Of a DNA stretch of 64,000 bases, positions 3,547 through 57,859 are shown one piece after another. Source of the stretch: an uncultured Brevinematales bacterium (GTDB taxonomy: Bacteria; Spirochaetota; Brevinematia; Brevinematales; CAZQBT01); the NCBI GenBank assembly GCA_964591955.1, contig CAZQBT010000005.1, positions 6,192-70,191 of the forward strand, written 5' to 3'. The translations under genes were made by a program, and so were the position numbers. The notes under the pieces were generated by a model. That model had not been told where the DNA came from, searched no databases, and saw only the letters and a list, made by a program, of their open reading frames with translations. Within the stretch, counting starts at the first letter, position 1, and each line of letters starts with the position of its first letter.

Positions 3547-6525
3547 ATGGAGAAAGATTTGCTTCATAAACCTTTGGCTGCAATTTTTGTTTTTATCCTT
3601 ACAACGATATGTTTTTCAAATATATTTGCCGAAACAACCAACGAGGCAACAGTCTCCGGTCCTCCCCGTTTGGAAGAACTCACCGATATAAGTACGGCAA
3701 GCCCGCACGAAAATATAATTTTCGATAATTACGATGAGGTTTATATCAAAAACTTTGAAAAAGAAAAAATCAGCGAAATTCATTTTATAGGCAACGTTCA
3801 AATTCGCTTTCAAAATAATTTGCTTAAAGCAAGAAAAGTTGTCATAACGGTTAAAGATGATAAGGTGCTTGAAATAGCCGCTTTCGACCGCGTTGAAATG
3901 CATTACGAAAAAGATATATATCTTGCAGATGAGATAATATTCGACCCGAACAAAGAAAGAGGCGTTCTTATAAATATGCGTTCCTACCTTCAGGATATGG
4001 GAGCAGGTCCTATGGGGTCAACGGTGGGATGGTATTACTCGGCAAAAAGGGCAACCATTATGTCCGCAAACCGGTTTATTTTTGAAGATGCCGTCTTTAC
4101 AACCAGCGACAGAAAATATCCCCCCTATTCATTTTCCGCAAAGCGGGGATGGCTTATCAGGGATACGCTGATGTTTGCAAGTAGCGTAACTTATACCGTA
4201 GCTCAGGCGGATTTTCTGTGGATTCCTTTTTTCTTCCGATGGGAAAGAGGAACCGGTATCAGAACCGCTTTCGGGCAGGAAAAACGTATCGGATGGTATA
4301 TGATGAATAGTTTCGGCACAAAGACTTCCTACGGTCAATACGATTTCGGCTTGGATTTCTATGAAAGATTAGGCGAATATTTCCTTATGAATTACCGTTC
4401 ATCTAAAGCTATGGGACCCATAAAAAATCTTTCGGTAAATTTACAGGCGGCAAATGATATTCGTATAATTCGCAATCAAGCCACAGACAGATATTACCAA
4501 CTAATCGACCCGATGAGAGACGGCAACTTCCGGATTATCCGCCAATTTTCTTGGCAATACAGGATAAATTCTACCATAGGCACGGATGCATATAATATAA
4601 GCATATACTGGGAAAACCTTAACGACCCGTTCCTGCAAGGCAAATACACAACAAGAAAAAGCGACTTTGACTTAAAAGAGGTAATCCAACCGGAAGAAAC
4701 ATCTTTTTATAATTATGGAGGCGATGCTTCCGCGCCTACTCGCTCTTTCAGCAGAGGTTTTGACCTGAGAGCGGGTAATTTTTCTATGAACGGGCGATGG
4801 AACTATATCCAAAATGTTGTTCCGGAGGTTACCAATACTTATCTAAACGAAAGATACGAATATATCGTGGACAGAGTTTCGCTGCCCAATATGAGCTATA
4901 ATCTCGGAAGATTAGACCTGTTCAAAAACGTCAAATATAATGTACCCATATCCCGCAAACTTGAAATAGACGGCACAAATTATATTATCGGGGTTAATGA
5001 AGATATTGCTCCATATCTCGAAAAACATCTTAAAGCCCCTGAAAAAACAAAGGCTAAGATACCGACGGAGTTCACAAACGAAACCTCTACTAATACAAAT
5101 TTAATATCCACAAATAGAATAGACGAACCGAAAAAAACACGTCCGAAAGTCGCCGAAAAAACCGAACCGTCATATAAAATGACCACCAATTCCTTTTCCT
5201 TTTATGATTTCTCATCACACGTTACCGCGAATTTCAATTATACATCAACGGAAAGTTTAGAAACCAACGGCGACCCTAAATCCGACCAATACGAACATAC
5301 GGAAAGAGGAACTTGGGTAATAGCGGGCTCAATATTAAACGGTTTATTCGGCCTAAACAACACTATGACACTTGTTAATCGTAAGAAATGGTCAAGTTTT
5401 GAAGCTGAAAAATTAAGCCATGAGAACTATTCCGGTGCTGAATTATCTACCGCGTCAACTGCAACATTTAATAAAACAGGCACCCTGCTTAAAGACCATC
5501 CGCTTGAAATAAAATTCCCGTTAAACGCACAACATTTTTTCAATTACCAAATCATCAGAACAACCTATACCACCACGCCGCGAGAAATGAAACATAATTC
5601 CACTCTTACCACCGGGTTTAATATGTTTAAAAACGACCTAAATTTTTCCATCAGCGCCAACCATAATCTGACTATTCAGGTTACAAACGATTTTGAAGAA
5701 TTGGAACGACTTAATACAAATTATATAGATAACAGATCATACCAAAGGTTAGGCGTTAAAACCTCGCTAAAACTTTTCTTTGTTACGGCATCAACGGGCG
5801 TTACGTTTGATATTCTCGAAACTATCGACAAGCCTATGGAATGGACTATTGAAGAACTGACCAACCGTATCGTGGGCGGAAATCCCCGTCTAACAGTCAA
5901 ATTTGACCCAATGACTTATATCGAAAAATTCGTTAATATCAATCTTCCTACTTTAAGCGGAACCTATGTTTACGACATACTCCAGAATACCAACGTATCG
6001 TTTAACCTAAACGCGGGATATACTGTAAGAAGCGTATCCCTGCCTATACTATATGAACTCTCCGAATTAAGGGTATCCGCAAATTACCGTCATGATTATC
6101 TTTCCCCGAAGTCCTCATATTTTAATATGACTTTTGCAACAACAATAATGTTCAGCAAATACTGGAAATTAACCTTTTCTACTTCCGTAAGAAACAATAA
6201 TCTTTACCGCTATTATCCCGAAAACGCGGAACGGTTTAACGAACCTTATATCCCGTTTTGGGAAAATTTATTCGATAGCGTGAATATATTTGATTATGAG
6301 GCGTTAAAACGGGGATTATTCAAGGTGCAGACGCTTAATTTTGACCTTGTGCATTTCTTGGATGATTGGCAGATGCATCTTAAATTTAACATAAACAGAA
6401 GATTAGACTCTGCAAGAAGAATCGCATACTGGGAACCCGAAATCAGGGTTGAGTTTGTTCTTTCGGGAACAAGCGAGCAATTCCCGCCATATACAAAGAA
6501 ATTCGTGCCTGAAGAATACCAGTAA
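3547..6525 (+). CDS. Large outer-membrane protein, LptD/OstA-like
   Basis: 992 aa with a signal peptide. The N-terminal segment (IHFIGNVQIRFQNNLLKARKVVITVKDDKVLEIAAFDRVEMHY...ADEIIFDPN) resembles the OstA/LptA beta-jellyroll. The long Tyr/Asn/Phe-rich C-terminal part is typical of a large beta-barrel. Assignment is from pattern only. Confidence 0.45.
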   Translation: MEKDLLHKPLAAIFVFILTTICFSNIFAETTNEATVSGPPRLEELTDISTASPHENIIFDNYDEVYIKNFEKEKISEIHFIGNVQIRFQNNLLKARKVVITVKDDKVLEIAAFDRVEMHYEKDIYLADEIIFDPNKERGVLINMRSYLQDMGAGPMGSTVGWYYSAKRATIMSANRFIFEDAVFTTSDRKYPPYSFSAKRGWLIRDTLMFASSVTYTVAQADFLWIPFFFRWERGTGIRTAFGQEKRIGWYMMNSFGTKTSYGQYDFGLDFYERLGEYFLMNYRSSKAMGPIKNLSVNLQAANDIRIIRNQATDRYYQLIDPMRDGNFRIIRQFSWQYRINSTIGTDAYNISIYWENLNDPFLQGKYTTRKSDFDLKEVIQPEETSFYNYGGDASAPTRSFSRGFDLRAGNFSMNGRWNYIQNVVPEVTNTYLNERYEYIVDRVSLPNMSYNLGRLDLFKNVKYNVPISRKLEIDGTNYIIGVNEDIAPYLEKHLKAPEKTKAKIPTEFTNETSTNTNLISTNRIDEPKKTRPKVAEKTEPSYKMTTNSFSFYDFSSHVTANFNYTSTESLETNGDPKSDQYEHTERGTWVIAGSILNGLFGLNNTMTLVNRKKWSSFEAEKLSHENYSGAELSTASTATFNKTGTLLKDHPLEIKFPLNAQHFFNYQIIRTTYTTTPREMKHNSTLTTGFNMFKNDLNFSISANHNLTIQVTNDFEELERLNTNYIDNRSYQRLGVKTSLKLFFVTASTGVTFDILETIDKPMEWTIEELTNRIVGGNPRLTVKFDPMTYIEKFVNINLPTLSGTYVYDILQNTNVSFNLNAGYTVRSVSLPILYELSELRVSANYRHDYLSPKSSYFNMTFATTIMFSKYWKLTFSTSVRNNNLYRYYPENAERFNEPYIPFWENLFDSVNIFDYEALKRGLFKVQTLNFDLVHFLDDWQMHLKFNINRRLDSARRIAYWEPEIRVEFVLSGTSEQFPPYTKKFVPEEYQ

Positions 6526-6535
6526 GGCGGTTTCT

Positions 6536-7648
6536 ATGAAATTCAAGCTAACCGCTTCCGACAACCGCGCCCGCGCAGGTGTTTTAAGTCTCTCTCACGG
6601 GGATATTCCCACTCCCGTATTTATGCCAGTCGGGACACAGGCTACGGTAAAAACCGTTTCTCCCGATGAACTTATAGATATGGGTGCAAATATTATACTC
6701 TCCAATGCCTATCATCTCTACCTGAGACCGGGTATTGAGGTTATAGAAAATGCCGGGGGTATCCATCGCTTTATGAACTGGGAAAAAAACGTGCTTACCG
6801 ACAGCGGGGGTTTCCAGATATTTTCACTTGCCCGCCTTAATTCCATCACCGATGAAGGTGCAACGTTCCAATCTCATATAGACGGGTCGCGTCATTTTAT
6901 TAATCCCGAAAAGGCAATGCAAATCCAAAACTCCATAGGCGCGGATATAATTATGTGTTTCGATGAGTGCGTTCCCTCCGATGCCGGCAAGGAACGCTCC
7001 CTTGAAGCCCTGATACGAACTACCGGATGGGCAAAGCGATGTAAAACCGAGCTTGCACGCCTTAATCCCTCCGACCGTTACCTCTTCGGGATTGTGCAGG
7101 GTGGAATTTTCGAGGATTTAAGACGACGAAGCAGTCGCGAACTTATTGATATAGATTTTCCCGGCTATGCAATCGGGGGACTTTCGGTCGGCGAGGAGCG
7201 CGATATTATGTATGATATGTTGTGGGTTATGGATGAGGAACTGCCTGAAAACAAGCCCCGCTACCTTATGGGCGTAGGGGTGCCGGAGGATATTCTTGAG
7301 GCTGTTGAGCGCGGGGTTGATATGTTCGACTGCGTTTTCCCTACGCGCGCGGGTAGGCATTCCACCGCCTTTTCGCGAAGGGGCAAACTACCCCTTAAAA
7401 ACAAGGAGTTTGAGTTTGACCTGAACCCTATTGACAAGGAATGCTCCTGCTATACCTGTCGTAATTTCTCCCTGTCGTATATACGCCACCTGTTTATGGC
7501 GAAGGAAATGCTCGCTATGAGACTTACCGCGCTCCATAACCTTCATTTTCTCTTAGACTTAACCGCACAGGCAAGACAGGCAATCATTGATGGAAGGTTC
7601 AAGGCATTCAAGGATGAGTTTTTATCCCGTTATCTTGCAAAGAATTAA
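6536..7648 (+). CDS. tgt: Queuine tRNA-ribosyltransferase
   Basis: MKFKLTASDNRARAGVLSLSHGDIPTPVFMPVGTQATVK...LTDSGGFQ...GLSVGE...CSCYTCRNFSLSYIRHL (Zn site) gives full-length Tgt motifs. Start is ATG 6536, 8 nt after the upstream stop. Confidence 0.92.
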   Translation: MKFKLTASDNRARAGVLSLSHGDIPTPVFMPVGTQATVKTVSPDELIDMGANIILSNAYHLYLRPGIEVIENAGGIHRFMNWEKNVLTDSGGFQIFSLARLNSITDEGATFQSHIDGSRHFINPEKAMQIQNSIGADIIMCFDECVPSDAGKERSLEALIRTTGWAKRCKTELARLNPSDRYLFGIVQGGIFEDLRRRSSRELIDIDFPGYAIGGLSVGEERDIMYDMLWVMDEELPENKPRYLMGVGVPEDILEAVERGVDMFDCVFPTRAGRHSTAFSRRGKLPLKNKEFEFDLNPIDKECSCYTCRNFSLSYIRHLFMAKEMLAMRLTALHNLHFLLDLTAQARQAIIDGRFKAFKDEFLSRYLAKN

Positions 7649-8395
7649 CTATTCCTGCGGATTCCTGTTCGACCCGAAAATAGCCAACAAAGTTATCACG
7701 TAAATCATCGCAGCTAAAATCGGGGGAAATATCTTTAAAATATGTAATACAATGGTTACCGCCAATATAATCAAAAAAACAGGTCTTTTAAATAAACTTT
7801 TCCCTAATAAAATTACCGCAAAAATAAAAGCTACAATCATCAATATCATCAAAATCCAGTTACCGACAGACGGCAGAATTTCACGAATAGGATTGCCAAT
7901 CCTAACCATTAAATGCCCGAAAGGCGTCAGGTATTCCAATTCGTTGAGATGGTTTAACGCGTATTCCGAATAACGAAGGATTATTGCATTAATATCGCCG
8001 GTTTCATTGTAAGATAAGGCTATCTCACGAAGTTTCTCCTCTGCGGCTTGCGAATATAGATTATCAGGCTCATACGCAAAATGATAATCCACCCTGTCGG
8101 AATAAAAAACAAAAATTGATATGGATTTCCTTTTTCGCGCAACCGACAAAAGTTTATCAACGGAATTTGAAATAATCTCATTGAAATTGGTTTCTCTCTC
8201 AAGACTGAAAATATAGATATAGGTATCCGCATTGTGCCTGCTGTCTATCTCAACGATATTTTTATATATCAGTTCCCGTGTTTCGGTATCAAGAAGCCAC
8301 ATCCCGCGGTTGAAGTATTTGGTAAGAGAGGCAAAAACCGTAGTCGAGAAAAAGACAAAAACCGAAACAAAAAAAACGAGTTTGATTGATTTCAT
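7649..8395 (-). CDS. Membrane protein, weakly TPM-domain-like (signal peptide, soluble domain, C-terminal TM helices)
   Basis: Signal peptide, a roughly 150-aa domain with alternating beta/alpha pattern, then 2-3 hydrophobic helices (WILMILMIVAFIFAVILL, VFLIILAVTIVLHIL). Family call is tentative. Confidence 0.35.
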   Translation of the reverse strand: MKSIKLVFFVSVFVFFSTTVFASLTKYFNRGMWLLDTETRELIYKNIVEIDSRHNADTYIYIFSLERETNFNEIISNSVDKLLSVARKRKSISIFVFYSDRVDYHFAYEPDNLYSQAAEEKLREIALSYNETGDINAIILRYSEYALNHLNELEYLTPFGHLMVRIGNPIREILPSVGNWILMILMIVAFIFAVILLGKSLFKRPVFLIILAVTIVLHILKIFPPILAAMIYVITLLAIFGSNRNPQE

Positions 8396-22688: not shown

Positions 22689-23411
22689 CTACCAGCTATC
22701 CAACATATCGTCGGGATTCTGGCTTTGTTCCGTGAACAAATCGGTATCGGCAGTTAAATAATCGAAGTAAATGTAATAAGGTCTTCCGAGCATATCTTCG
22801 GGATTAAAATCAACCCTGAAACCAACAAAAGTAAGTCCTCTTTCCTCGGTAACTTTGTAATTTTCCTGTTCAACGGTATCGGGGACATTCAGGACAACCT
22901 TTTTCCATCCGACCCAAATCATCCTTTCGGCGGAAAGAACGCGCAATCTGTCAAGATAATCCCTTACAACAAAGCTCAAAGTATGGCGATAATTTCTTCC
23001 TACCACCCAAACGGAAAGACTTTTAGTAATACCTTTAACTTTAGTAGGACGCGCCGGGTTAATGGAAATCCAACTCCAGTCTCTTCTCATAAACTCGGTT
23101 TTCACACCTAATACATAGCGGTTATCCTCGCCGAACAATTCGCGAGGTCCGCCTTCGCGTCTCATAGCACGGGTTACACCGTAATCCCGAGGCATATAAG
23201 AAGCCCATTCACCCGCAGTCTCAAAATCATCAATGAGGAGGGTTTGAACCAACTCTGTGGCAACTGTGCGTCGCGCCGTTTCACCCGCATCGGTATCCAC
23301 AACCTCAAGCTCGCCAACTCTGGCGGCATCCGGTCTCCCGACCTGCTGTGCAAACATCGGGCTTACCGAAATCAATATTACTGCCAACACCACAAACACT
23401 CTATGTTTCAT
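22689..23411 (-). CDS. FlaA-like flagellar filament outer-layer (sheath) protein, paralogue 1
   Basis: Secreted, 240 aa. Shares with its neighbour the block SLSVWVVGRNYRHTLSFVVRDYLDRLRVL...WVGWKKVVLNVP...YFDYL, which I recall as typical of the spirochaetal FlaA family. From memory, not verified. Confidence 0.5.
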   Translation of the reverse strand: MKHRVFVVLAVILISVSPMFAQQVGRPDAARVGELEVVDTDAGETARRTVATELVQTLLIDDFETAGEWASYMPRDYGVTRAMRREGGPRELFGEDNRYVLGVKTEFMRRDWSWISINPARPTKVKGITKSLSVWVVGRNYRHTLSFVVRDYLDRLRVLSAERMIWVGWKKVVLNVPDTVEQENYKVTEERGLTFVGFRVDFNPEDMLGRPYYIYFDYLTADTDLFTEQSQNPDDMLDSW

Positions 23412-23444
23412 AACAATCTCCTTATTACAAAATTTAATCTATAA

Positions 23445-24254
23445 TTACCACGCCTTCCTTGCGAGGTCATCACCGTCAAACCTCTCCACGTGAACATCAG
23501 TCTGAACCTGCATATAATCAAAGTATGCATAAAATTGGTCAACCCTCTCGGTAGGATAACTCCACAGCTTAATAATGTCTAATTTTAACGGTTGCAGGAA
23601 AGGAACATGGTATTGCGCCTGAGGAATATGCCCCGGAATATTAGTGCGAAGATTTCTCCACCCGATATAGTTAAGGTCTCCCACCTGAATCCTGTGCATA
23701 TAGCCTTTAAAATCGCGGATATGAAACTCCATCCAATACCGGTAATTACCGCCCCAAACCCAAATATCAAGACTATGAACAATGCCGAATAAATCAAGAC
23801 TGGATACCTCACTTTCAACTTGCGAATTAGGAGGACTCATAGGATCATCGGGAAAAGCATTAGCGCCGGTAGGTTTGTGAGGGACAAGTTCAATCCAGTT
23901 GTAAGACTGCTTGATAAACTGGGCTTTAATTCCCAACGCCCAATGTTGTCTTGCTTCCTGCTCCTGAGGCAATCCCATCGGCTTTGCCTGAATATATTCA
24001 CCTGCGCATGCCTCCGGGTCGGGATCTGCATTTTCAACGGTAAAATCAACCGGCTTGGCAAATCTGGAAAACCTCACTCTCCAAAGCGTGCCTCTTTCCC
24101 TGTCGATATAATCCCCAAAATCGGAAATGATGTAAGTTTGCAAATTAACCGTATCCCGTTTTTGCTGGCGGAATGCATCGACTTTAGAAAACGGCAATAA
24201 CATAAACACTGCAATCAGCATAAAACCTAAAACTAACCTTCCTTTGTATTTCAT
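23445..24254 (-). CDS. FlaA-like flagellar filament outer-layer (sheath) protein, paralogue 2
   Basis: Secreted, 269 aa. SLDIWVWGGNYRYWMEFHIRDFKGYMHRIQVGDLNYIGWRNLRTNIP...YAYFDYM is a paralogue of 22689-23411. Confidence 0.5.
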   Translation of the reverse strand: MKYKGRLVLGFMLIAVFMLLPFSKVDAFRQQKRDTVNLQTYIISDFGDYIDRERGTLWRVRFSRFAKPVDFTVENADPDPEACAGEYIQAKPMGLPQEQEARQHWALGIKAQFIKQSYNWIELVPHKPTGANAFPDDPMSPPNSQVESEVSSLDLFGIVHSLDIWVWGGNYRYWMEFHIRDFKGYMHRIQVGDLNYIGWRNLRTNIPGHIPQAQYHVPFLQPLKLDIIKLWSYPTERVDQFYAYFDYMQVQTDVHVERFDGDDLARKAW

Positions 24255-49204: not shown

Positions 49205-49867
49205 TTAGTAAAAATGATTAGCCGCTTTAACCATCCTGTCCATAATAGACAAAGCCTTGTCTTTGTCGATAAATTTTGCGGTCTCATTCCATTTGATACC
49301 ATAGTCTTCTATAAAAAAATTGTCGCGTCCCTGAAATAATTCAATAAGCGCCGACTGCAACCTCGTGTCGGACAAAAAAACCTTTATCTGCTCTTTTTTC
49401 TTACCGCTTACGGAAATCAGTTTTTCCAAGATTGGATTATGCGGCACGTTTACAAAAAATTTCTTGAATAACTTTTTACCGAAATTTGTAAAAAAATCAG
49501 CCCTCTTTATTTTCATATCATAATCATACCTTTTTTTAAAAGGCAAAAAAATGTTCATTAACTCGACGGAATGATTAGAACCGCTTTTTTGGGTTGACCG
49601 ATAGATGTAAAAATCATAATCCTGATATTTGCCCGAAATAATACCTATAAACATCTGTGAAATCATTTTTTTCCAGAATGGAGTTTCAAGCAACTTTATA
49701 AAGCTGTGTATATCTTTTGCCCCTAAGTGCCTGCCTAAAATTATATAGCCAAGCGAATCGGCATTCCCGGTAAACGCCTCAACTCCCGGCTTAAACGTCA
49801 TACCTAATTCGGATGCAAGTCTCTGCCACGTTTGCACATCATCCTTTCTAATAAATATTCCTCTCAT
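49205..49867 (-). CDS. Hypothetical protein
   Basis: 220-aa ORF, Lys/Phe-rich. No family recognised. Confidence 0.4.
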   Translation of the reverse strand: MRGIFIRKDDVQTWQRLASELGMTFKPGVEAFTGNADSLGYIILGRHLGAKDIHSFIKLLETPFWKKMISQMFIGIISGKYQDYDFYIYRSTQKSGSNHSVELMNIFLPFKKRYDYDMKIKRADFFTNFGKKLFKKFFVNVPHNPILEKLISVSGKKKEQIKVFLSDTRLQSALIELFQGRDNFFIEDYGIKWNETAKFIDKDKALSIMDRMVKAANHFY

Positions 49868-49973
49868 ATCAATCCCCCTGTCTTTTAATAATTATAACAA
49901 AACGCGCGGGCAATATCAAATATCCTTCAGCTAAAAACGGAAAAAATTAATTTGAAAAAATCCGCCTTTAAAC

Positions 49974-50041
49974 TTGACAAAACCTGTCGGATTATATATT
50001 ATATACTATCAAGTCTATGGAGATAGTATTATATAGGAGGA
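49974..50041 (+). promoter_or_regulatory. Promoter, inverted-repeat operator and leader of the DsrE-like/TusA operon (copy 1 of a duplicated control region)
   Basis: TTGACA 49974-49979; -10 TATTAT 49997-50002. Perfect 8-bp inverted repeat ATACTATC (50003-50010) / GATAGTAT (50022-50029). AGGAGGAG RBS; ATG 50045. 63 of 77 nt are identical to 52925-53001 (hand alignment, no gaps). Confidence 0.55.
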
Positions 50042-50044
50042 GAT

Positions 50045-50524
50045 ATGAACGGGAAAAAATTATCAATAATAGCTTTCAGCGGGGATTTCGATAAAGCAAT
50101 CGCCGCGTTCACATTGGCAACAGGCGCAGCCGCGGTCGGCTATGAGGTCAATCTCTTTTTTACTTTTTGGGGTTTCAACATAATCAAGCGTAAAAAGGGG
50201 AGAAGGTTTACAGGCAAGGGATTTATGGCGAGGATGTTTAACTTCCTTATGGGCGGATTTCGCAACCTCCCTCTAAGCAGGTTGAATTTCGTGGGAGCAA
50301 GCCCCCGCCTTATGACAGGCCTTATGAAAAAACGCAACGTCGCTACATTAAAAGAGCTTGTATCATCGGCTGTCCAACTCGGCGTAAATTTCTACGCCTG
50401 TGAGATGTCTATGGTGATACTCGGATTAAAACTTGAGGATTTAATCCCGGAAATAAAACCAGACATTCTCGGTGTCGCAAAGTTTCTTGAGATTTCCGAC
50501 GGAGGCGAGACCTTATTTATCTAA
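50045..50524 (+). CDS. DsrE/DsrF/DrsH-like (DrsE_2) family protein
   Basis: KKLSIIAFSGDFDKAIAAFTLATGAAAVGYEVNLFFTFWGFNIIKRKK...NFYACEMS... matches my recollection of the DrsE_2 family, including the conserved Cys in ACEMS. Confidence 0.7.
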   Translation: MNGKKLSIIAFSGDFDKAIAAFTLATGAAAVGYEVNLFFTFWGFNIIKRKKGRRFTGKGFMARMFNFLMGGFRNLPLSRLNFVGASPRLMTGLMKKRNVATLKELVSSAVQLGVNFYACEMSMVILGLKLEDLIPEIKPDILGVAKFLEISDGGETLFI

Positions 50525-50537
50525 AACGGAGGACACT

Positions 50538-50762
50538 ATGAAACAATACAAATTGGATATAACATCGGAACACTGCCCGATGACTTTTGTCAAAACGAGA
50601 ATCGAATTGGATAAATTGCAGGACGGCGACCGCCTTGAGGTTATCCTGCGCGAGGGTGAACCGTTGGATAATGTCCCTAAAGCGGCTAAAGAACAGGGTT
50701 ATCGCGTGTTGAAGGTATATCATATAGATAAGGACATACACGGCATCCTGATAGAAAAGTAG
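50538..50762 (+). CDS. TusA/SirA-like sulfurtransferase
   Basis: 74 aa. MKQYKLDITSEHCPMTFVKTRIELDKLQDGDRLEVILREGEPLDNVPKAAKEQGYRV carries the active-site CP-x-P/T motif and the TusA fold pattern. GGAGG 6 nt upstream of ATG 50538. Confidence 0.85.
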   Translation: MKQYKLDITSEHCPMTFVKTRIELDKLQDGDRLEVILREGEPLDNVPKAAKEQGYRVLKVYHIDKDIHGILIEK

Positions 50763-50867
50763 TATCAAGCAATCGGCTGTTTAATTTTATATTGCGGAAT
50801 GGGGAAATGCCGTAATTCTACGATATTCACAGGCAACAACCCTTCCCGTCAATCACGCAAAATACCG

Positions 50868-50903
50868 GCGGGGCGCTCTTAAAAATTAGCTTCAGCGCCC
50901 CGC
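50868..50903 (+). terminator. GC-rich hairpin after the DsrE-like/TusA operon
   Basis: GCGGGGCGCT (50868-50877) pairs with AGCGCCCCGC (50894-50903): 10-bp stem, 16-nt loop. No clear U-tract. Confidence 0.45.
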
Positions 50904-50949
50904 TCTCCTCTAAAAAATCAAACCCTATTTAAAAAAAATTCATTCATAC

Positions 50950-50978
50950 TTGACTTGTAGGATTAAATATGATAGAAT
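50950..50978 (+). promoter_or_regulatory. Sigma-70-type promoter of the porin / FMN-binding protein genes
   Basis: TTGACT (50950-50955), 17-nt spacer, TAGAAT (50973-50978). AGGAGG RBS; ATG 51022. Confidence 0.45.
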
Positions 50979-51021
50979 AGACTAACTTTATTTGTTTAGA
51001 CTAAAAAACAGGAGGTCATAT

Positions 51022-52161
51022 ATGCAGAAGCATATTATTTTTTGGTTCGCGCTGGCTCTAATGACGGCAAGTTTTGTCCCGTTATCGGCGCAAAGTTCGG
51101 ATAATATCGGGCTTGAGGATGAGGATTTCGCCTATTCTTCATCTCAAGGCGTTCATCTCGGCGGTTACGGTGAACTTCACTATAACTACAAATCAACCGA
51201 AACCGGAGAGGTATCTTCGGTTTTCGATTTCCACCGTTTCGTGATTTTTTTCGGCTACACTTTTAATGAACAGTGGTCGATGTTTTCCGAAATTGAGATT
51301 GAGCATAATTTTGTGCAGGACGGTCAGGGTTATCTTGCCTTGGAGCAGGCTTATCTCGCATACCAGCCGTTTGACTGGATGGGTTTTCAGGTCGGCGTTC
51401 TTTTGCCGAGTGTCGGGATAATAAACGAAACTCACGAACCCCCTACTTTCCTGTCGGTCGAACGCCCTATCTACTCAAGAAACATTATCCCAACCACATG
51501 GTATGGTAACGGCGTAAGTGTTTACGGTAACATTTCGGGACTACAATACCGTCTTGTTGCTATGGAGGGATTGGACGGGTCTAAATTCAACAAGCAGACC
51601 GGTATCCGCTCCGGACGGGGAAGAGGATTCTATCACTTTGATAATGCAAAATACCTTTTGTATAATCTCGCCCTGGACTATACCGGTATCAGCGGTTTGC
51701 GTATCGGCGGCTCGGCTACATATAATAACTCATTAGTAGAAACGGACGGGATTAACGATATTAATAATCCCATACTCCTGCTTGAATCACATATCCAATT
51801 CAAGTTTAGGGGGCTTATTACAACCTTTGAGTTCGGACACATAAGCTACGGCAACCCCGATGTTTTGGATTTGCAAGCCTCTTTCGGCTATTATCTTGAG
51901 GCGGGATATAATATAGGTTATCTTTTCGGATGGCGCGCACAGCTAATCCCGTTTGTCAGATGGAGTCATATCGACACCGCTTGGAAAACTTACAGCGGAA
52001 CGGACGAAGGACAAAAAAGACTGAAACTTATGGGAGGTATCAGCTTCTTGCCTATAGAAAATATTTCTCTAAAAATTGATTTCGCAAACGAAATAAAAGG
52101 CTCGTCCCCGAATACTTCCCAAACTTTCCTTTTGAATATCGGTATGGGTTATATGATTTAA
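51022..52161 (+). CDS. Outer-membrane porin-like beta-barrel protein
   Basis: Signal peptide MQKHIIFWFALALMTASFVPLSAQ. GGYGELHYNY...FDFHRFVIFFGYTF...FSEIEIEH... plus alternating beta-strand pattern, as in OprO/P-like or uncharacterised anion porins. Start set to ATG 51022 (the track start is a TTG). Confidence 0.5.
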   Translation: MQKHIIFWFALALMTASFVPLSAQSSDNIGLEDEDFAYSSSQGVHLGGYGELHYNYKSTETGEVSSVFDFHRFVIFFGYTFNEQWSMFSEIEIEHNFVQDGQGYLALEQAYLAYQPFDWMGFQVGVLLPSVGIINETHEPPTFLSVERPIYSRNIIPTTWYGNGVSVYGNISGLQYRLVAMEGLDGSKFNKQTGIRSGRGRGFYHFDNAKYLLYNLALDYTGISGLRIGGSATYNNSLVETDGINDINNPILLLESHIQFKFRGLITTFEFGHISYGNPDVLDLQASFGYYLEAGYNIGYLFGWRAQLIPFVRWSHIDTAWKTYSGTDEGQKRLKLMGGISFLPIENISLKIDFANEIKGSSPNTSQTFLLNIGMGYMI

Positions 52162-52190
52162 CCCGTTTTGACACCGTTATTTCCTCCGAT

Positions 52191-52233
52191 GTAACCGCAC
52201 TACCCGCTTTTAACGGCGAAAAGGTGCGGTTAC
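52191..52233 (+). other. 10-bp perfect stem-loop in the porin / FMN-binding intergenic region
   Basis: GTAACCGCAC (52191-52200) pairs with GTGCGGTTAC (52224-52233); 23-nt loop. Not followed by a U-tract. Confidence 0.35.
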
Positions 52234-52282
52234 AAACGGAGTATTTATGAAGTCTCAAATTTATAATTTACGGAGAATAACT

Positions 52283-52813
52283 ATGAAAAGAATTTCCTTA
52301 GCAATAATGATAACCTGTTTTGCATCTGTTCCATCGTGGGCTTCCATAAACAGAGAAGCGAGAAAAGCGATAACCGAAAGCGTATCCGAAAACGCGGAGG
52401 TCGGTTTTAAAAAAACATATATCGGCGACGATTTAAAAACACTAATTGAAACAAAATCCCAATCAAGTTTCCTGCAAAACTATATATATTTCAGTCCGGT
52501 TACTTTGGATGGCGTTATAGTAAACTATGCGATAATCGACAGCGCAATGGAAAGAACCGCCCCGTTTACATTTCTTGTCCTGTTTACTCCCGACTTGAAA
52601 ATCCGAAACGTAACGGTAATCCGTTATATATCCCGCTACGGAAGCGGTATCCGCGATTCACGATGGCTTAAACAGTTTGAGGGCAAAACCGCCGGTTCGG
52701 GTTTTCGTCTTAACAGTAACATAGATTCCATTAGCGGCGCTACAATCTCCGCACGCTCAATCGCCGATGCATTGGAAAGACTCTCGCTTTTAATCCCGCA
52801 TCTGGTAAAATAA
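52283..52813 (+). CDS. Periplasmic FMN-binding domain protein (NqrC/RnfG/NosR-type FMN_bind)
   Basis: Signal peptide MKRISLAIMITCFASVPSWA. C-terminal ...WLKQFEGKT...NIDSISGATISARSI contains the S-G-A-T motif whose Thr is the flavinylation site in this domain family. Confidence 0.7.
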   Translation: MKRISLAIMITCFASVPSWASINREARKAITESVSENAEVGFKKTYIGDDLKTLIETKSQSSFLQNYIYFSPVTLDGVIVNYAIIDSAMERTAPFTFLVLFTPDLKIRNVTVIRYISRYGSGIRDSRWLKQFEGKTAGSGFRLNSNIDSISGATISARSIADALERLSLLIPHLVK

Positions 52814-52927
52814 AATTTGCCTGTATAATTTTTTCCTCAATCCGTTATATGCAATATTCCCGTTTTCTATACGCTTATCCAAAATATATTCAGCTTGATT
52901 TTTTTTTTCAAAAGCACAACTTAAAAC

Positions 52928-52995
52928 TTGACAAAAACTATCTGATTATGTATAATATACTATCAATACTACGGTAATAATAGTATTTAGGAGGA
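52928..52995 (+). promoter_or_regulatory. Promoter, inverted repeat and leader of the ThiS-MetY operon (copy 2 of the duplicated control region)
   Basis: TTGACA 52928-52933, 17-nt spacer, TATAAT 52951-52956. ATACTATC 52957-52964, with its partial complement ATAGTAT at 52980-52986. AGGAGGAG RBS; ATG 52999. The distance from -35 to ATG is the same as in copy 1 (71 nt). Confidence 0.55.
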
Positions 52996-52998
52996 GTT

Positions 52999-54441
52999 AT
53001 GAATATTAAAATCAACGGAAAAATCGAGCCTATCCCGCAAGATAGTATCACTGTATCGGAACTTTTAGAACTCAAGCAGGTTAAATATCCCGATATGGTT
53101 TCGGTTCAGCTTAACGGTGAGTTTGTAGAAAGAATCCTGTTCGATAAAACGACGGTTAATGAGGATGATGAGTTTGAGTTCCTGTATTTTATGGGGGGAG
53201 GGTCACAAGGATGGGATTTTGCAACCCGCGCTATCCATTCCTGCCCGCCAATCGAATCGACAAATAACCCGACTGTCCCTCCGATATATCAAAGTGCGGC
53301 TTTCAGCTACGACACAGCCGAAGAAATAGAAACGGTATTTGACGGCAGGGGCTTCGGTTATATCTACTCCCGTATCTCCAACCCAACGGTTACCGCATTT
53401 GAGTATAAAATCAACTCGCTTGAAAACGGTGTCGGAACGGTCGCCGCCGCTTCGGGTATGTCGGCAATCCTTAATTCCATACTTGCACTTGCCGGCAGCG
53501 GGGAGGAGATTATCGCAAGCAAAAGTTTGTTCAGCGGAACGCGCTCGCTTTTCGACGAGGTTTTAAGCAAGCTCGGTATCAAGGTCATATACGCCGATAT
53601 TAACGATACCGCTACCCTCCAATCTCTCATAACCGATAAAACCCGTCTCGTTTTTTGCGAGACAATCGGAAACCCTCTTTTGGACATAACGGATTTTTTA
53701 AAACTTGCGGATTTGGCGCATAAACACCGTATCCCTCTTATAGCCGACAGCACACTCACAACCCCATATCTTTTCAAGGCAAAGGATTTCGGGGTTGATA
53801 TAGTAGTCCATTCGGCGACCAAATATCTTACCGGCAACGGGACCGCCGTTGGCGGGGTAATAACCGATTTAGGCAATTTTGACTGGAATAATTCCCTCTC
53901 AGGCGATATCCGCGATAATGCTAAAAATTTCGGGCAATTCGCGTTTTTGTCCGTTCTTCGTAAAAAAATCCTGCAAAACACGGGAGGGGTTCTTTCACCC
54001 TTTAACGCATTTCTTCATAACCTCGGCGTTGAAACTCTATCTCTCAGGATGGAACGGCATTGCACAAACGCTTCGGAGTTAGCTCTCTATTTAAGCAATC
54101 ACAAAAAAGTTAAAAAAATTACCTACCCCGGCTTGAATAAAAATCCTTACTACGCACTCGCAAAAAATCAATTTAGCGGAAAATTCGGGGCGCTTTTGAA
54201 TTTCTCGCTTGAAAGCAGGGAGGATTGCTTCAAGTTTATATCCCGCTTAAAAATGACCAAAAATCTCGCCAACCTCGGCGACTCAAAAACTATGGTTATA
54301 CATCCCGCCTCAACCCTGTTTTCATCACTACCGAAAGAACATCGCCTCTCAATAGGCATAACCGATGAGATGATTCGGGTATCCATAGGAATTGAGGCAA
54401 TCAGAGACATTATTGAAGATTTTGAAAACGCTTTAAGCTAA
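52999..54441 (+). CDS. Fusion protein: ThiS/MoaD-like sulfur-carrier domain (aa 1-68, ends FMGGG) plus O-acetylhomoserine sulfhydrylase-type PLP enzyme (MetY-like)
   Basis: N-terminus MNIKINGKIEPIPQDSITVSELLELKQVKYPDMVSVQLNGEFVERILFDKTTVNEDDEFEFLYFMGGG aligns by eye with ThiS (…ING…TV.ELL…V.LNGE.V.R…L.D.D..E…GG). The rest is ATRAIHS...YSRISNPT...VVHSATKYLTGNG (PLP Lys)...GDSKTMVIHPASTLFS, the Cys/Met-metabolism PLP family. Confidence 0.8.
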   Translation: MNIKINGKIEPIPQDSITVSELLELKQVKYPDMVSVQLNGEFVERILFDKTTVNEDDEFEFLYFMGGGSQGWDFATRAIHSCPPIESTNNPTVPPIYQSAAFSYDTAEEIETVFDGRGFGYIYSRISNPTVTAFEYKINSLENGVGTVAAASGMSAILNSILALAGSGEEIIASKSLFSGTRSLFDEVLSKLGIKVIYADINDTATLQSLITDKTRLVFCETIGNPLLDITDFLKLADLAHKHRIPLIADSTLTTPYLFKAKDFGVDIVVHSATKYLTGNGTAVGGVITDLGNFDWNNSLSGDIRDNAKNFGQFAFLSVLRKKILQNTGGVLSPFNAFLHNLGVETLSLRMERHCTNASELALYLSNHKKVKKITYPGLNKNPYYALAKNQFSGKFGALLNFSLESREDCFKFISRLKMTKNLANLGDSKTMVIHPASTLFSSLPKEHRLSIGITDEMIRVSIGIEAIRDIIEDFENALS

Positions 54442-54451
54442 GGAGGATTTT

Positions 54452-55255
54452 ATGGAATTAAACGATAAGCAAATAGAACGTTACAGCCGCAATATTATAT
54501 TAAAGGAAGTCGGCGGGAAAGGGCAAACAAAACTTTTAGAATCGAAGGTGCTTGTTATCGGTGCCGGAGGGTTAGGCGCGCCGGCTTCTTTATACCTTGC
54601 CGCTTCGGGTGTGGGAACTATCGGTATTGCCGACGGAGATGCCGTTGATATTACCAATCTTCAACGCCAGATTATCCATTTCACACCGGATATCGGCAAG
54701 CCTAAGGTAACTTCCGCTAAAGAAAAAATTATCGCGCTTAACCCCGATGTAAATGTCATTACCTATAATGACAGGATAACCGCCGACAATATCGCATCGG
54801 TAATACAAGACTACGATTTTATTATCGATGCTACCGACAACTTCCCGACAAAGTTTCTTATTAACGATGCCTGTGTGCTTAACAAAAAGGCGTTTTCTCA
54901 CGGCGGAATACTTCGCTTTGACGGGCAAACGCTAACCCATACGCCGGGCAATGCATGTTACCGATGCGTATTCGACAGTCCGCCTCCTAAAGGGCTTGTG
55001 CCTACTTGTAGTCAGGCGGGAATTCTCGGCGCGGTAGCGGGAATTCTCGGTTCAATACAGGCGGCGGAAGCGCTTAAATTTATACTCGGCACGGGGGACT
55101 TATTAATCAACAGGCTTCTTGTGATGAACGCACTTGATATGAGCTTTAGAACCGTTGATTTAAAACGAAACCCCAAGTGTAAAATATGCGGAAATTCGCC
55201 TGAAATTACGGAATTAACCGATTACGAAGAACCATCCTGCGATTTAAGGAGGTAG
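54452..55255 (+). CDS. ThiF/MoeB/HesA-type adenylyltransferase (E1-like), no rhodanese domain
   Basis: RYSRNIILKEVGGKGQTKLLESKVLVIGAGGLGAPASLYLAASGVG...DNFPTKFLINDAC..., with CYRC and CKIC as a Zn-binding pair. Confidence 0.88.
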   Translation: MELNDKQIERYSRNIILKEVGGKGQTKLLESKVLVIGAGGLGAPASLYLAASGVGTIGIADGDAVDITNLQRQIIHFTPDIGKPKVTSAKEKIIALNPDVNVITYNDRITADNIASVIQDYDFIIDATDNFPTKFLINDACVLNKKAFSHGGILRFDGQTLTHTPGNACYRCVFDSPPPKGLVPTCSQAGILGAVAGILGSIQAAEALKFILGTGDLLINRLLVMNALDMSFRTVDLKRNPKCKICGNSPEITELTDYEEPSCDLRR

Positions 55256-55257
55256 CC

Positions 55258-55650
55258 GTGATAAAAATCAAAAAAGAGATTGTAGAAGCTATACATAAAC
55301 AGGGAAAAAACGAACTCCCAAATGAAGCCTGCGGTTATCTCGCCGCAAAAGACGGGGTAATAGTAAAAGCCTTTCCTATGACTAACGCCGATAAAAGTCC
55401 CGAACATTTTTCCTTTATTCCAAAGGAGCAGTTCGACGTTGTCAGGAAGGCAAGGGAGGAAGGCTTGGAGATGATTGCGATATATCATACCCATCCCGCT
55501 ACCCCGGCGCGGATGTCAAACGAGGATATCCGTCTTGCTTACGACACAAACACTCTCTATGTGATATACTCGCTGAAGGATAATGATATAAAATGTTTCA
55601 GCACGGACGGAGATAAAAAGATAAAAACAATCGATTTGGAGGTGATTTAA
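55258..55650 (+). CDS. JAMM/MPN+ metallopeptidase (Mec+/HcyD-like)
   Basis: NEACGYL (catalytic Glu) and HTHPATPARMSNED, which equals H-x-H-x7-S-x2-D. GTG start 2 nt after the E1 stop, with an AAGGAGG RBS. Confidence 0.88.
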   Translation: MIKIKKEIVEAIHKQGKNELPNEACGYLAAKDGVIVKAFPMTNADKSPEHFSFIPKEQFDVVRKAREEGLEMIAIYHTHPATPARMSNEDIRLAYDTNTLYVIYSLKDNDIKCFSTDGDKKIKTIDLEVI

Positions 55651-55651
55651 G

Positions 55652-57859
55652 ATGAGTATATTCAGATTGCCCGACAGCTTAGATAAAGATATAGCGGAAT
55701 ACGCAAGACTGGTTAAAGGCTATCTAAACGGAACAATCGACAAGGCACAACTCAAGGCTTTTCGCGTTCCTATGGGTATATACGAACAACGCGAAAACGA
55801 AAAGTATATGATGAGGTTTGTTATCCCCGGCGGTGATTTATCACCTATGCAATTATACGCCTTGGCGGAGATTGCTAAAAAATATTCGCCGTCAGACCTG
55901 CATATTACCACCAGAGGCGATATGCAATTACACGGAATAAATCTGCCCGACACTATTGTTATTATCAAAAAGCTGCGGACTATCGGATTAACGACACGCG
56001 GCGGAGGCGGCAATACCGTCAGAAATATTCTTATAGACTACCTTTCGGGATTAGACCCCGAAGAGGCTTTTGATGTCGCGCCTTATGCTCAGGAATTGGC
56101 AAGCAGGTTGATAAGCGAACCGGATTCGTTTACTCTCCCGCGAAAATTCAAGATAGCATTTTCAAGCAGTCCCGAGGACAGGGGCAAGGCTACGGTAAAC
56201 GACCTCGGATTTATTGCCGAAACCGATAAAAACGGCAACCGAGGGTTTAAGGTTTATATCGGCGGAGGGATGGGGTTAAAACCGCGCACGGGGATAGTCC
56301 TGTTTGATTTTGCGCCGGATACCGAGGTGTATAATATCGCAAAAGCCGCAAAAGACTTTTTCAATAAATACGGAAACCGTAAAAACAAACACGCCGCAAG
56401 GTTAAGATTTGTCTTATCCAAGCTCGGCGAAAATGATTTTCTTTCCAAATTCAGCGAGGAATACGAACGGGTCAAGGCTTTGAGTTTCCCGCCTTTTGAT
56501 ATTAAACCGGTGGAAACGCCCGGTGATTACGGTTATATATTAATACCGTTATTCTTAGGCGACATTTCCCCCGAATCCGCGGAGAATATTGCCGAAATCG
56601 CTATGCAGTTTGAAACCGCATCAATACGTTTAACATCACAACAAAACCTTATTATCAAAGGTATCCCGAATGAGAGTATTAAAGATATAAGAGAGCAAAT
56701 TCCGAATACGGGTATCCCCGGGCAATTCCCGTCGTTTATAGGCAACGCCGTTGCCTGTGCGGGAGCAAGCACCTGCCGTTTGGGAATATGTCTTTCGCGC
56801 AACCTTTTATCCGCTATTAAGGATATAACAAGCGAAAAAGCCTACCCCAATACGGATGATTTATCGCTCAAAATTTCGGGATGTCCTAACACCTGCGGAC
56901 AGCATATAATCGCCGATATAGGATTTTTCGGCAGGGGAGTGCGTTTCGGGAAAAGCAACGCAATCGCCCCGGCTTATAACGTGGTATTGGGCGGTCATCT
57001 CGGAAACGGGGTTTCCTCGCTTGCCGAAAATATCGGGGTTATTGCCGCTAAAAAAATCCCCGAATTTATGGGCGAGGTTTTGGGTTTTATCGGTCAAAAC
57101 CGTCTGACGGATGAGGCTTTTAGTGAGTTCATCAAGCGCGTTGGAAAAAATGAATTTACCAAAATATTGGATAAATACGGCGAAATCCCCGACATTGAGG
57201 AAAACAAGGACTATTACTATGACTGGGGCGATGATAAACCGTTTTCTATCTCCGAGAGGCTTGAGGGTGAATGTTCGGCGGGGTTGTTTGACCTTATCGA
57301 AACCGACCTGAAAACGGCTAAGGACAAACTGACGTCAAATCTTCCACGCGAGGCGCTGTATTACTCGCTTCGCGCCCTGTTAATCACCCGAGGAATAGTG
57401 CCGGGTAGTGAAAGCGAAACGGTCTCCGGGTTTAACAAATTTTTCTTAGGCAAATATATAGAACAGTCTTACGAGACGCTTATTAAAAAATTTGTCGATA
57501 GCGGGGAAATCCGCGTTAATGAAGCCGAAGATTTTTACAACCGCATAGAATGGCTATACGAACAAATGGATAACAGCCTCAAGTTTCCCGAATTAGCCCA
57601 TAACGAGGATAAAACAGATAACGCAACCGAACCAAAAGAGAATATCAAGGATTTTCGGGAAATACCGTGTCCGATGAATTTCGTTAAAGCAAAGATGGCG
57701 CTTGAAAATATCGAAATAGGCGAAAGGTTGGAAATTTATATTGATGACGGAGAGCCGATTGACAACGTCCCTCCTTCGTTACGAAACGAGGGGCATAGTA
57801 TTGTATCGCAGAAGCGAATCGGCGATTACTGGTCGATTGTAGTCGAAAGGAGGGTTTGA
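55652..57859 (+). CDS. Assimilatory-type siroheme-[4Fe-4S] sulfite reductase with C-terminal TusA-like domain
   Basis: Two NIR/SIR half-domains (…HITTRGDMQLHGI…, …IRLTSQQNLIIKGIP…). Cluster/siroheme Cys motifs are CAGASTC (C-x5-C) and CPNTC (C-x3-C). The last 72 aa, NIKDFREIPCPMNFVKAKMALENIEIGERLEIYIDDGEPIDNVPPSLRNEGHSIV..., form a TusA fold with a CP motif. Confidence 0.8.
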   Translation: MSIFRLPDSLDKDIAEYARLVKGYLNGTIDKAQLKAFRVPMGIYEQRENEKYMMRFVIPGGDLSPMQLYALAEIAKKYSPSDLHITTRGDMQLHGINLPDTIVIIKKLRTIGLTTRGGGGNTVRNILIDYLSGLDPEEAFDVAPYAQELASRLISEPDSFTLPRKFKIAFSSSPEDRGKATVNDLGFIAETDKNGNRGFKVYIGGGMGLKPRTGIVLFDFAPDTEVYNIAKAAKDFFNKYGNRKNKHAARLRFVLSKLGENDFLSKFSEEYERVKALSFPPFDIKPVETPGDYGYILIPLFLGDISPESAENIAEIAMQFETASIRLTSQQNLIIKGIPNESIKDIREQIPNTGIPGQFPSFIGNAVACAGASTCRLGICLSRNLLSAIKDITSEKAYPNTDDLSLKISGCPNTCGQHIIADIGFFGRGVRFGKSNAIAPAYNVVLGGHLGNGVSSLAENIGVIAAKKIPEFMGEVLGFIGQNRLTDEAFSEFIKRVGKNEFTKILDKYGEIPDIEENKDYYYDWGDDKPFSISERLEGECSAGLFDLIETDLKTAKDKLTSNLPREALYYSLRALLITRGIVPGSESETVSGFNKFFLGKYIEQSYETLIKKFVDSGEIRVNEAEDFYNRIEWLYEQMDNSLKFPELAHNEDKTDNATEPKENIKDFREIPCPMNFVKAKMALENIEIGERLEIYIDDGEPIDNVPPSLRNEGHSIVSQKRIGDYWSIVVERRV

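Follow-up and report, generated by a model that had tools for sequence, protein, structure and literature searches.

A duplicated promoter with a putative dyad operator heads two sulfur-gene units of a Brevinematales bacterium and recurs before homocysteine operons in other genomes

In a 64,000-nucleotide stretch of DNA from an uncultured Brevinematales bacterium (positions 6,192 to 70,191 of contig CAZQBT010000005.1, assembly GCA_964591955.1; hereafter, the window), two units of sulfur genes, one beginning with dsrE2-tusA and the other with thiS-metY, are headed by two copies of the same promoter and leader region. We propose that a strong sigma-70-type promoter and the 24-bp dyad that follows it, a putative operator, were duplicated when an ancestral operon split, and that an Rrf2-family repressor acting in trans would control both of the resulting units. 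We give this reading a probability of about two-thirds. The two copies are

49951-50049, forward strand: copy 1 of the promoter-operator-leader repeat, upstream of dsrE2-tusA and 78% identical to copy 2
52905-53003, forward strand: copy 2 of the promoter-operator-leader repeat, upstream of thiS-metY

The copies align without gaps over 99 nt, 77 of which are identical (78%), and the start codons of the two units form the exact 3′ ends of the repeat. The original prediction, made from the letters of the window, had described a shorter core (49971-50047 and 52925-53001) with 63 of 77 bases identical in an ungapped alignment, the same 71-nt distance from TTGACA to ATG in each copy (49974 to 50045 and 52928 to 52999), and a set of shared blocks. 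On recomputation the identity was exactly as described, the spacing held in both copies, and the blocks AAACTTGACAAAA, GATTAT, and ATATACTATCAA and the consensus ribosome-binding site AGGAGGAG were all present in each. As a control, the 77-nt regions upstream of the window genes were aligned at their start codons in all 1653 pairs. The mean identity was 22.2 (standard deviation 4.4) and the next best pair reached 37, while the copy 1/copy 2 pair reached 62. Identity between the copies is also raised outside the parts that are conserved across species, at 13/17 positions of the spacer between the -35 and -10 boxes and 15/23 positions of the upstream flank, which shows that the two copies share a common descent. 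That the repeat is present only twice in 64 kb, ends at start codons, and has unrelated flanks rules out a dispersed repeat or mobile element resembling a miniature inverted-repeat transposable element. Contigs of the same organism from eight samples are 100% identical to the window and thus carry no polymorphism information.

Each copy contains a predicted promoter and a Shine-Dalgarno sequence, as follows.

49974-50002, forward strand: copy 1 sigma-70-type promoter, TTGACA, 17-bp spacer, TATTAT, with 11/12 hexamer matches
52928-52956, forward strand: copy 2 sigma-70-type promoter, TTGACA, 17-bp spacer, TATAAT, TG extension, with 12/12 hexamer matches
50035-50042, forward strand: copy 1 Shine-Dalgarno sequence AGGAGGAG, the same in copy 2
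52989-52996, forward strand: copy 2 Shine-Dalgarno sequence AGGAGGAG, the same in copy 1

Both predicted promoters have sigma-70-type hexamers separated by a spacer within the 16-18 bp range, and they rank first and second among the sigma-70-like sites in the 10-kb region (12/12 for copy 2 and 11/12 for copy 1). In copy 1 the TG extension has been lost and the -10 box reads TATTAT. The same -35/-10 architecture recurs in eight further related promoters. A third promoter in the cluster, at 50950-50978 (TTGACT-17-TAGAAT), has generic hexamers only, as the original prediction had stated, and no dyad site with up to one mismatch.

Just downstream of the -10 box, each copy carries a dyad.

50006-50029, unstranded: copy 1 putative operator dyad CTATCA-N12-TAGTAT, with one mismatch to CTAYNA-N12-TNRTAG, beginning 4 nt past the -10 box
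52960-52983, unstranded: copy 2 putative operator dyad CTATCA-N12-TAATAG, the sole exact match to CTAYNA-N12-TNRTAG in the 64-kb window

When the promoters of relatives were anchored on the -10 box for comparison, eight distinct operon-heading promoters were found to carry the 24-bp dyad CTAYNA-N12-TNRTAG, starting at +3 or +4 after this box. These are copies 1 and 2 of the window and the promoters of loci L161 (Spirochaetes bacterium GWF1_49_6), L157, L159, L034, L035, and L036. Six of the eight match the pattern exactly, and copy 1 and L036 have one mismatch each. Across the 16 half-sites, T2, A3, a pyrimidine at position 4, and A6 are invariant (16 each), and C1 is present in 14. Because the sequences between the arms and between the -35 and -10 boxes vary freely among genomes, we take the arms to be under selection; the ThiS-MetY proteins of the genomes that share them are only ~50% identical. 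Over 11 sites, nine start at +3 or +4 after the -10 box, and the dyad heads a sulfur or homocysteine operon in nine genomes. Among intergenic sequences of the window, copies 1 and 2 are the only sites with up to one mismatch. Conservation upstream of the operons of relatives had been proposed as a check of the original prediction, and the dyad is indeed found at the heads of the homologous operons, in eight promoters from seven genomes besides that of the window, with the register unchanged in seven of these promoters.

This conserved register differs from the one that was originally described, in which the operator was a perfect inverted repeat in copy 1 whose right half-site is shifted by 3 nt in copy 2. 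The inverted repeat, ATACTATC-N11-GATAGTAT at 50003-50029, exists and encloses the copy 1 dyad. In copy 2 the corresponding words are ATACTAT-N16-ATAGTAT, at 52957-52986, and a search with the inverted-repeat words gave two matches in the window, where 0.01 would be expected by chance. The N11 register of copy 1 is not common to the relatives, and the conserved site is instead CTAYNA-N12-TNRTAG. We dropped both the N11 palindrome as the operator and the 3-nt shift in favor of this register, which places the dyads of the two copies alike; the shift is an artifact of choosing the word ATAGTAT.

Two loci were fetched after the pattern had been fixed. The 12.4 kb of L163, a metagenome contig, contain a single site with up to one mismatch. 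It lies in the promoter between an rrf2 gene and cysK-metY, where TATAAT-tc-CTACTA-N12-TAGTAT places the dyad 3 nt after the -10 box. Thermospira aquatica (CP073355.1) has two exact sites in 20.5 kb, where the frequency in the window (1.6e-5 per position) predicts ~0.3. Both are in promoters, one driving thiS-metY-thiF-dsrE2-tusA and the other a unit encoding an FNT transporter and a NirB-like reductase. As these two dyad promoters are near-duplicates of each other, promoter duplication has happened at least twice.

The near-duplicate promoter-operator-leader regions of Thermospira aquatica (L169) span 3830-3940 and 7640-7745. Behind one lie a 75-amino-acid open reading frame, the FNT transporter, and the NirB-like reductase, and behind the other lies thiS-metY-thiF-dsrE2-tusA. 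In each region the CTAYNA-N12-TNRTAG dyad is exact and extends to TTCTATAA/TTATAGAA.

If the dyad is an operator, which we consider very probable, which protein binds it? In six of the nine genomes an Rrf2-family gene lies next to the dyad promoter. In L033/L034, L035, and L036, rrf2 is the first gene driven by this promoter, with a CysK-type PALP gene next; L157 and L159 have rrf2 in divergent orientation to the promoter, and L163 has it just upstream. The encoded proteins pass the Rrf2 superfamily cut-off only, with CymR the best among the named subfamilies (92-128 bits against the NCBIfam equivalog model NF047409, below its cut-off of 195), and they keep three conserved cysteines. The putative operator also has the size and position of an Rrf2-type site (~23-27 bp, at or overlapping the core promoter) and recurs both before related sulfur genes and before rrf2 itself (L033/L034, L035, and L036). 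Rrf2 operators are ~23 bp long, and CymR has CysK as a partner (PMC9338935). Given an operator, an Rrf2 protein is quite probably its ligand, and the regulator is most likely an Rrf2-family repressor of the three-cysteine, CymR/IscR-like type that is encoded outside the window. Beginning 3-4 nt past the -10 box, the dyad would cover the presumed transcription start, and a dimeric repressor bound to it would block open-complex formation or promoter escape. Such a regulator would sense cysteine, sulfur, or iron-sulfur (Fe-S) status. We infer, rather than observe, the transcription start, repression, Rrf2 as the binding protein, and its signal. The original prediction that one factor, probably a repressor responding to sulfur or methionine status, acts on both units through an operator at the -10/+1 region gains support from the conservation of the dyad, its specificity within the window, and its adjacency to Rrf2 genes.

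One candidate for the organism's own Rrf2, the protein P0266 found with an L159-type Rrf2 as query, was rejected because it derives from other samples. Its contig supplied an independent instance of the operator.

Several points weigh against our proposal. Only L163 and Thermospira aquatica are independent tests of the dyad pattern, and in the latter the dyad is 16 nt downstream of the -10 box, wholly within the leader, showing that its position relative to the promoter is not universal. Although no more than two of the eight promoters matched in any of 200,000 composition-preserving shuffles, this statistic is inflated and circular, the pattern having come from these very promoters. Copy 1 contains a further, perfect 8-bp palindrome in the other (N11) register, for which the model has no need. 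A metagenome scan with ATATACTATCAAN{5,15}ATAGTAT, with matches in at least 119 stretches, gave no further regulon members; the matches inspected were all AT-rich, unrelated, and without similarity to the promoter, and contigs of the window organism were not among them. Neither tblastn of the 64-kb window nor inspection of the other spirochaete loci, L161 and Thermospira, revealed an Rrf2 gene in the window or near the operon, respectively, and Pfam scans of 40 window proteins found no regulator gene. It is because the window has no rrf2 that we place the proposed repressor in trans. Finally, the dyad-adjacent Rrf2 genes belong to three subfamilies with 31-35% mutual identity, and a single shared specificity is not assured.

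Some of these points would also fit a different assignment, in which the dyad is the operator of a regulator of another family encoded elsewhere and the neighboring Rrf2 genes form a separate layer of cysteine control. This would be consistent with the lack of an Rrf2 gene in the window or near the operon in three spirochaete loci, with the divergence of the three Rrf2 subfamilies, and with L028 and L031, where Rrf2 genes lie beside the same pathway, yet the dyad is degenerate or a different palindrome is present. We consider this assignment unlikely, as rrf2 is the only regulator gene that recurrently adjoins the dyad promoter and is itself driven by it in three genomes, the usual autoregulatory layout. 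The length and symmetry of the dyad likewise fit the ~23-bp operators of this family (PMC9338935).

The metagenome relative L031 encodes a different, shorter Rrf2 (133 amino acids) and has other palindromes at the equivalent promoters (5640-5707 and 830-864): AATTCATAC-N8-ATATGAATT before thiS and CTACTAATATAGTATC before rrf2. Operator types thus differ between lineages of the pathway.

Another possibility, which we regard as quite improbable, is that the inverted repeat acts in RNA, forming a hairpin in the 5′ leader that stabilizes the mRNA, tunes translation, or binds a protein or ligand. The arms can pair over 7-8 bp in both window copies and in L161, and the spacing of the ATACTAT/ATAGTAT words varies (N7, N13, and N16) in a way that a hairpin would tolerate. 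In Thermospira the whole dyad is transcribed, which is why we retain a small probability for an RNA role, and of its two leaders one is more stably folded than shuffled sequences (z = -2.2). However, the left arm begins 1-4 nt past the consensus -10 box and would be mostly untranscribed, hairpin energies are only ~-6 kcal/mol, six of eight leaders have z-scores between -0.3 and -1.6, and in L034, L035, and L036 the arms pair over just 4 bp, around loops of 16 nt. The hairpin leaves the ribosome-binding site free in the leaders of copies 1 and 2. Across the 11 sites, covariation does not exceed that expected from column composition (pair counts as high as those observed arise in 110/500 and 71/500 shuffles), and dyad position 5 is unpaired in six of the 11. 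Symmetry at the level of the consensus with no pairwise covariation is the pattern of a dimeric DNA-binding protein. Rfam gave no match at the gathering score in the window, and at an E-value of up to 10 the only match in 49800-53100 was to an unrelated clustered regularly interspaced short palindromic repeat (CRISPR) element. A riboswitch or structured leader was rejected for want of an Rfam family, a significant fold, or covariation, in line with the original view that the leader, which we place at ~36-40 nt, is not a riboswitch. The least probable alternative, to which we give very little weight, is that the similarity of the copies is a mere leftover of the dsrE2-tusA rearrangement and that both are plain constitutive promoters with no operator; this would agree with the raised spacer and flank identity in parts that are not conserved across species, but genomes with ThiS-MetY proteins of only ~50% identity share the dyad arms while the bases around them differ, and the fixed pattern singled out sulfur-gene promoters in two independent loci.

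How, then, would one promoter-operator have come to head two units? The genes behind the two copies, and those between them, are

50045-50524, forward strand: gene for a DsrE2-type (YrkE-like) sulfur carrier (Pfam DrsE_2, 1.3e-43; NCBIfam DsrE2 match below cut-off)
50538-50762, forward strand: tusA-like sulfurtransferase gene (Pfam TusA, 3.8e-19)
50950-52813, between the copies: genes for a porin-like 389-amino-acid protein and a 188-amino-acid protein with a flavin mononucleotide (FMN)-binding domain, with their own promoter and no dyad
52999-54441, forward strand: ThiS-MetY fusion gene (O-acetylhomoserine sulfhydrylase; Pfam ThiS and Cys_Met_Meta_PP; fusion relatives 43-54% identical)
54452-55255, forward strand: ThiF/MoeB-type adenylyltransferase gene, HcyF-like (Pfam ThiF, 8e-80)
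55258-55650, forward strand: JAB/MPN metalloprotease gene, HcyD-like (Pfam Prok-JAB; synteny)
55652-57859, forward strand: sulfite/nitrite reductase hemoprotein gene with a C-terminal TusA domain (Pfam NIR_SIR, NIR_SIR_ferr, and TusA)

The loci of relatives were retrieved with DsrE2 and ThiS-MetY as queries. All of those fetched have dsrE2-tusA within the operon, after thiF and, except in Thermospira aquatica, directly before the JAB gene; in the window, the JAB gene directly follows thiF. Since dsrE2-tusA is internal in the operons of all relatives, the gene order of the window is derived, through a split of the operon. In this event dsrE2-tusA would have moved ~3 kb upstream, taking a copy of the promoter-operator along, with the porin-like and FMN-binding-protein genes and their own promoter now separating the units. 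The retained copy would leave both units answering to the same regulator. Copy 2 is probably the ancestral one, because its TGTATAATATACTAT recurs unchanged in the thiS promoter of Spirochaetes bacterium GWF1_49_6. In a scan of a genome collection with ThiS-MetY the closest genome was only 46% identical, leaving no close relative for a comparison at the level of single bases.

The ancestral operon would have comprised thiS(-metY), thiF, dsrE2, tusA, the JAB protease gene, and the sulfite reductase-TusA gene, and would have encoded a protein-thiocarboxylate route from sulfite to homocysteine. Krishnamoorthy and Begley reportedly described such a pathway, consisting of HcyS, HcyF, HcyD, and MetY, in Wolinella succinogenes in 2011, and we take the gene set of the copy 2 unit to be the same pathway. 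The two share a ThiS-like carrier, a ThiF-like adenylyltransferase, a JAB protease, an O-acetylhomoserine sulfhydrylase, and a sulfite reductase; the Brevinematales cluster differs in that ThiS is fused to MetY, the reductase has a TusA domain, and a DsrE2-TusA pair is present. Together, the TusA domain of the reductase, DsrE2, and the free TusA suggest that sulfur is passed from the reductase to the ThiS carrier in a persulfide relay, not as free sulfide. We know of no description of how the HcyS/HcyF/HcyD/MetY pathway is regulated.

Farther downstream of the copy 2 unit are genes for siroheme and heme synthesis. ThiS-MetY is an in-frame fusion in which the C-terminal GGG of the carrier lies at the junction (…FMGGGSQGW…), so that release of the carrier would require cleavage of the fusion by the JAB protease, whose gene lies two genes downstream. 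The protein collection contains ~35 relatives of this fusion, at 43-54% identity, some of them labeled Omnitrophota. The reductase-TusA fusion is also present in the operons of relatives.

The site belongs to a conserved regulon that, as far as our literature searches show, is undescribed; these searches found no account of a CTAYNA-N12-TNRTAG regulon. The mechanism is of a familiar kind, not a new one. More tentatively, at somewhat less than even odds, the dyad may mark a multi-phylum regulon (Spirochaetota, Omnitrophota, and unassigned lineages) in which a three-cysteine Rrf2 repressor controls the ThiS-thiocarboxylate/DsrE2-TusA route from sulfite to homocysteine and the promoter-operator is a copyable cassette, duplicated when operons break up. 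Duplication of the cassette is seen independently in the window organism and in Thermospira aquatica. These findings provide a concrete putative operator and a candidate regulator family for homocysteine synthesis of the ThiS-type thiocarboxylate/DsrE2/TusA kind, and they link dsrE2-tusA functionally to this route, through synteny in relatives and the shared operator in the window. They also suggest that co-regulation could outlast the splitting of an operon through copying of the promoter-operator. The prediction is directly testable in Thermospira aquatica, a cultured species whose complete genome carries the site twice.

Several known systems can be compared with the site. S-adenosylmethionine riboswitches (S-box and related) share its position before methionine-pathway genes, but the window leader, at its short length, has neither an Rfam match nor significant structure. 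The published CymR box is not known to resemble CTAYNA-N12-TNRTAG. IscR operators overlap promoters and have a little-contacted center. The dyad differs from the operators of IscR, NsrR, and RsrR in half-site sequence and target genes and has arm centers ~18 bp apart. It resembles them in that they are imperfect dyads of ~23-25 bp and the rrf2 gene is autoregulated (PMC9338935). CymR of Bacillus subtilis and Staphylococcus aureus is likewise a dimeric Rrf2 repressor that acts at sulfur-assimilation and cysteine/methionine promoters, and its partnership with CysK (PMC9338935) recalls the relatives in which the dyad promoter drives rrf2 and then a CysK-type PALP gene. However, the Rrf2 proteins of the relatives have three cysteines like the Fe-S-binding IscR or NsrR, while CymR of B. 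subtilis lacks a cluster (PMC9338935), and the target pathway is here the ThiS-thiocarboxylate route.

Among the matches listed in the metagenome scan, we noted a recurrent, nearly identical element, TTGCAAATATACTATCAAATTTGATAGTATGCAAG, on human gut metagenome contigs (L038, L056, L059, L075, L092, L100, L105, L112, and others). This element forms a perfect palindrome centered on ATACTATCAAATTTGATAGTAT and has no relation to the window promoter.

Two further features of the window complete the neighborhood.

49205-49867, reverse strand: gene for a 220-amino-acid protein, divergent from copy 1, with no Pfam or NCBIfam match
22689-24254, reverse strand: a pair of neighboring genes for FlaA, the outer-layer protein of the flagellar filament; they place the organism in Spirochaetota

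The porin-like 389-amino-acid protein encoded between the copies likewise has no family match. A promoter-like site with a TG extension, TTGATA-17-TATAAT at 49919-49891, lies 55 bp upstream of the copy 1 -35 box and would serve the gene for the divergent 220-amino-acid protein. FlaA, encoded by the adjacent pair, is a hallmark of spirochaetes.

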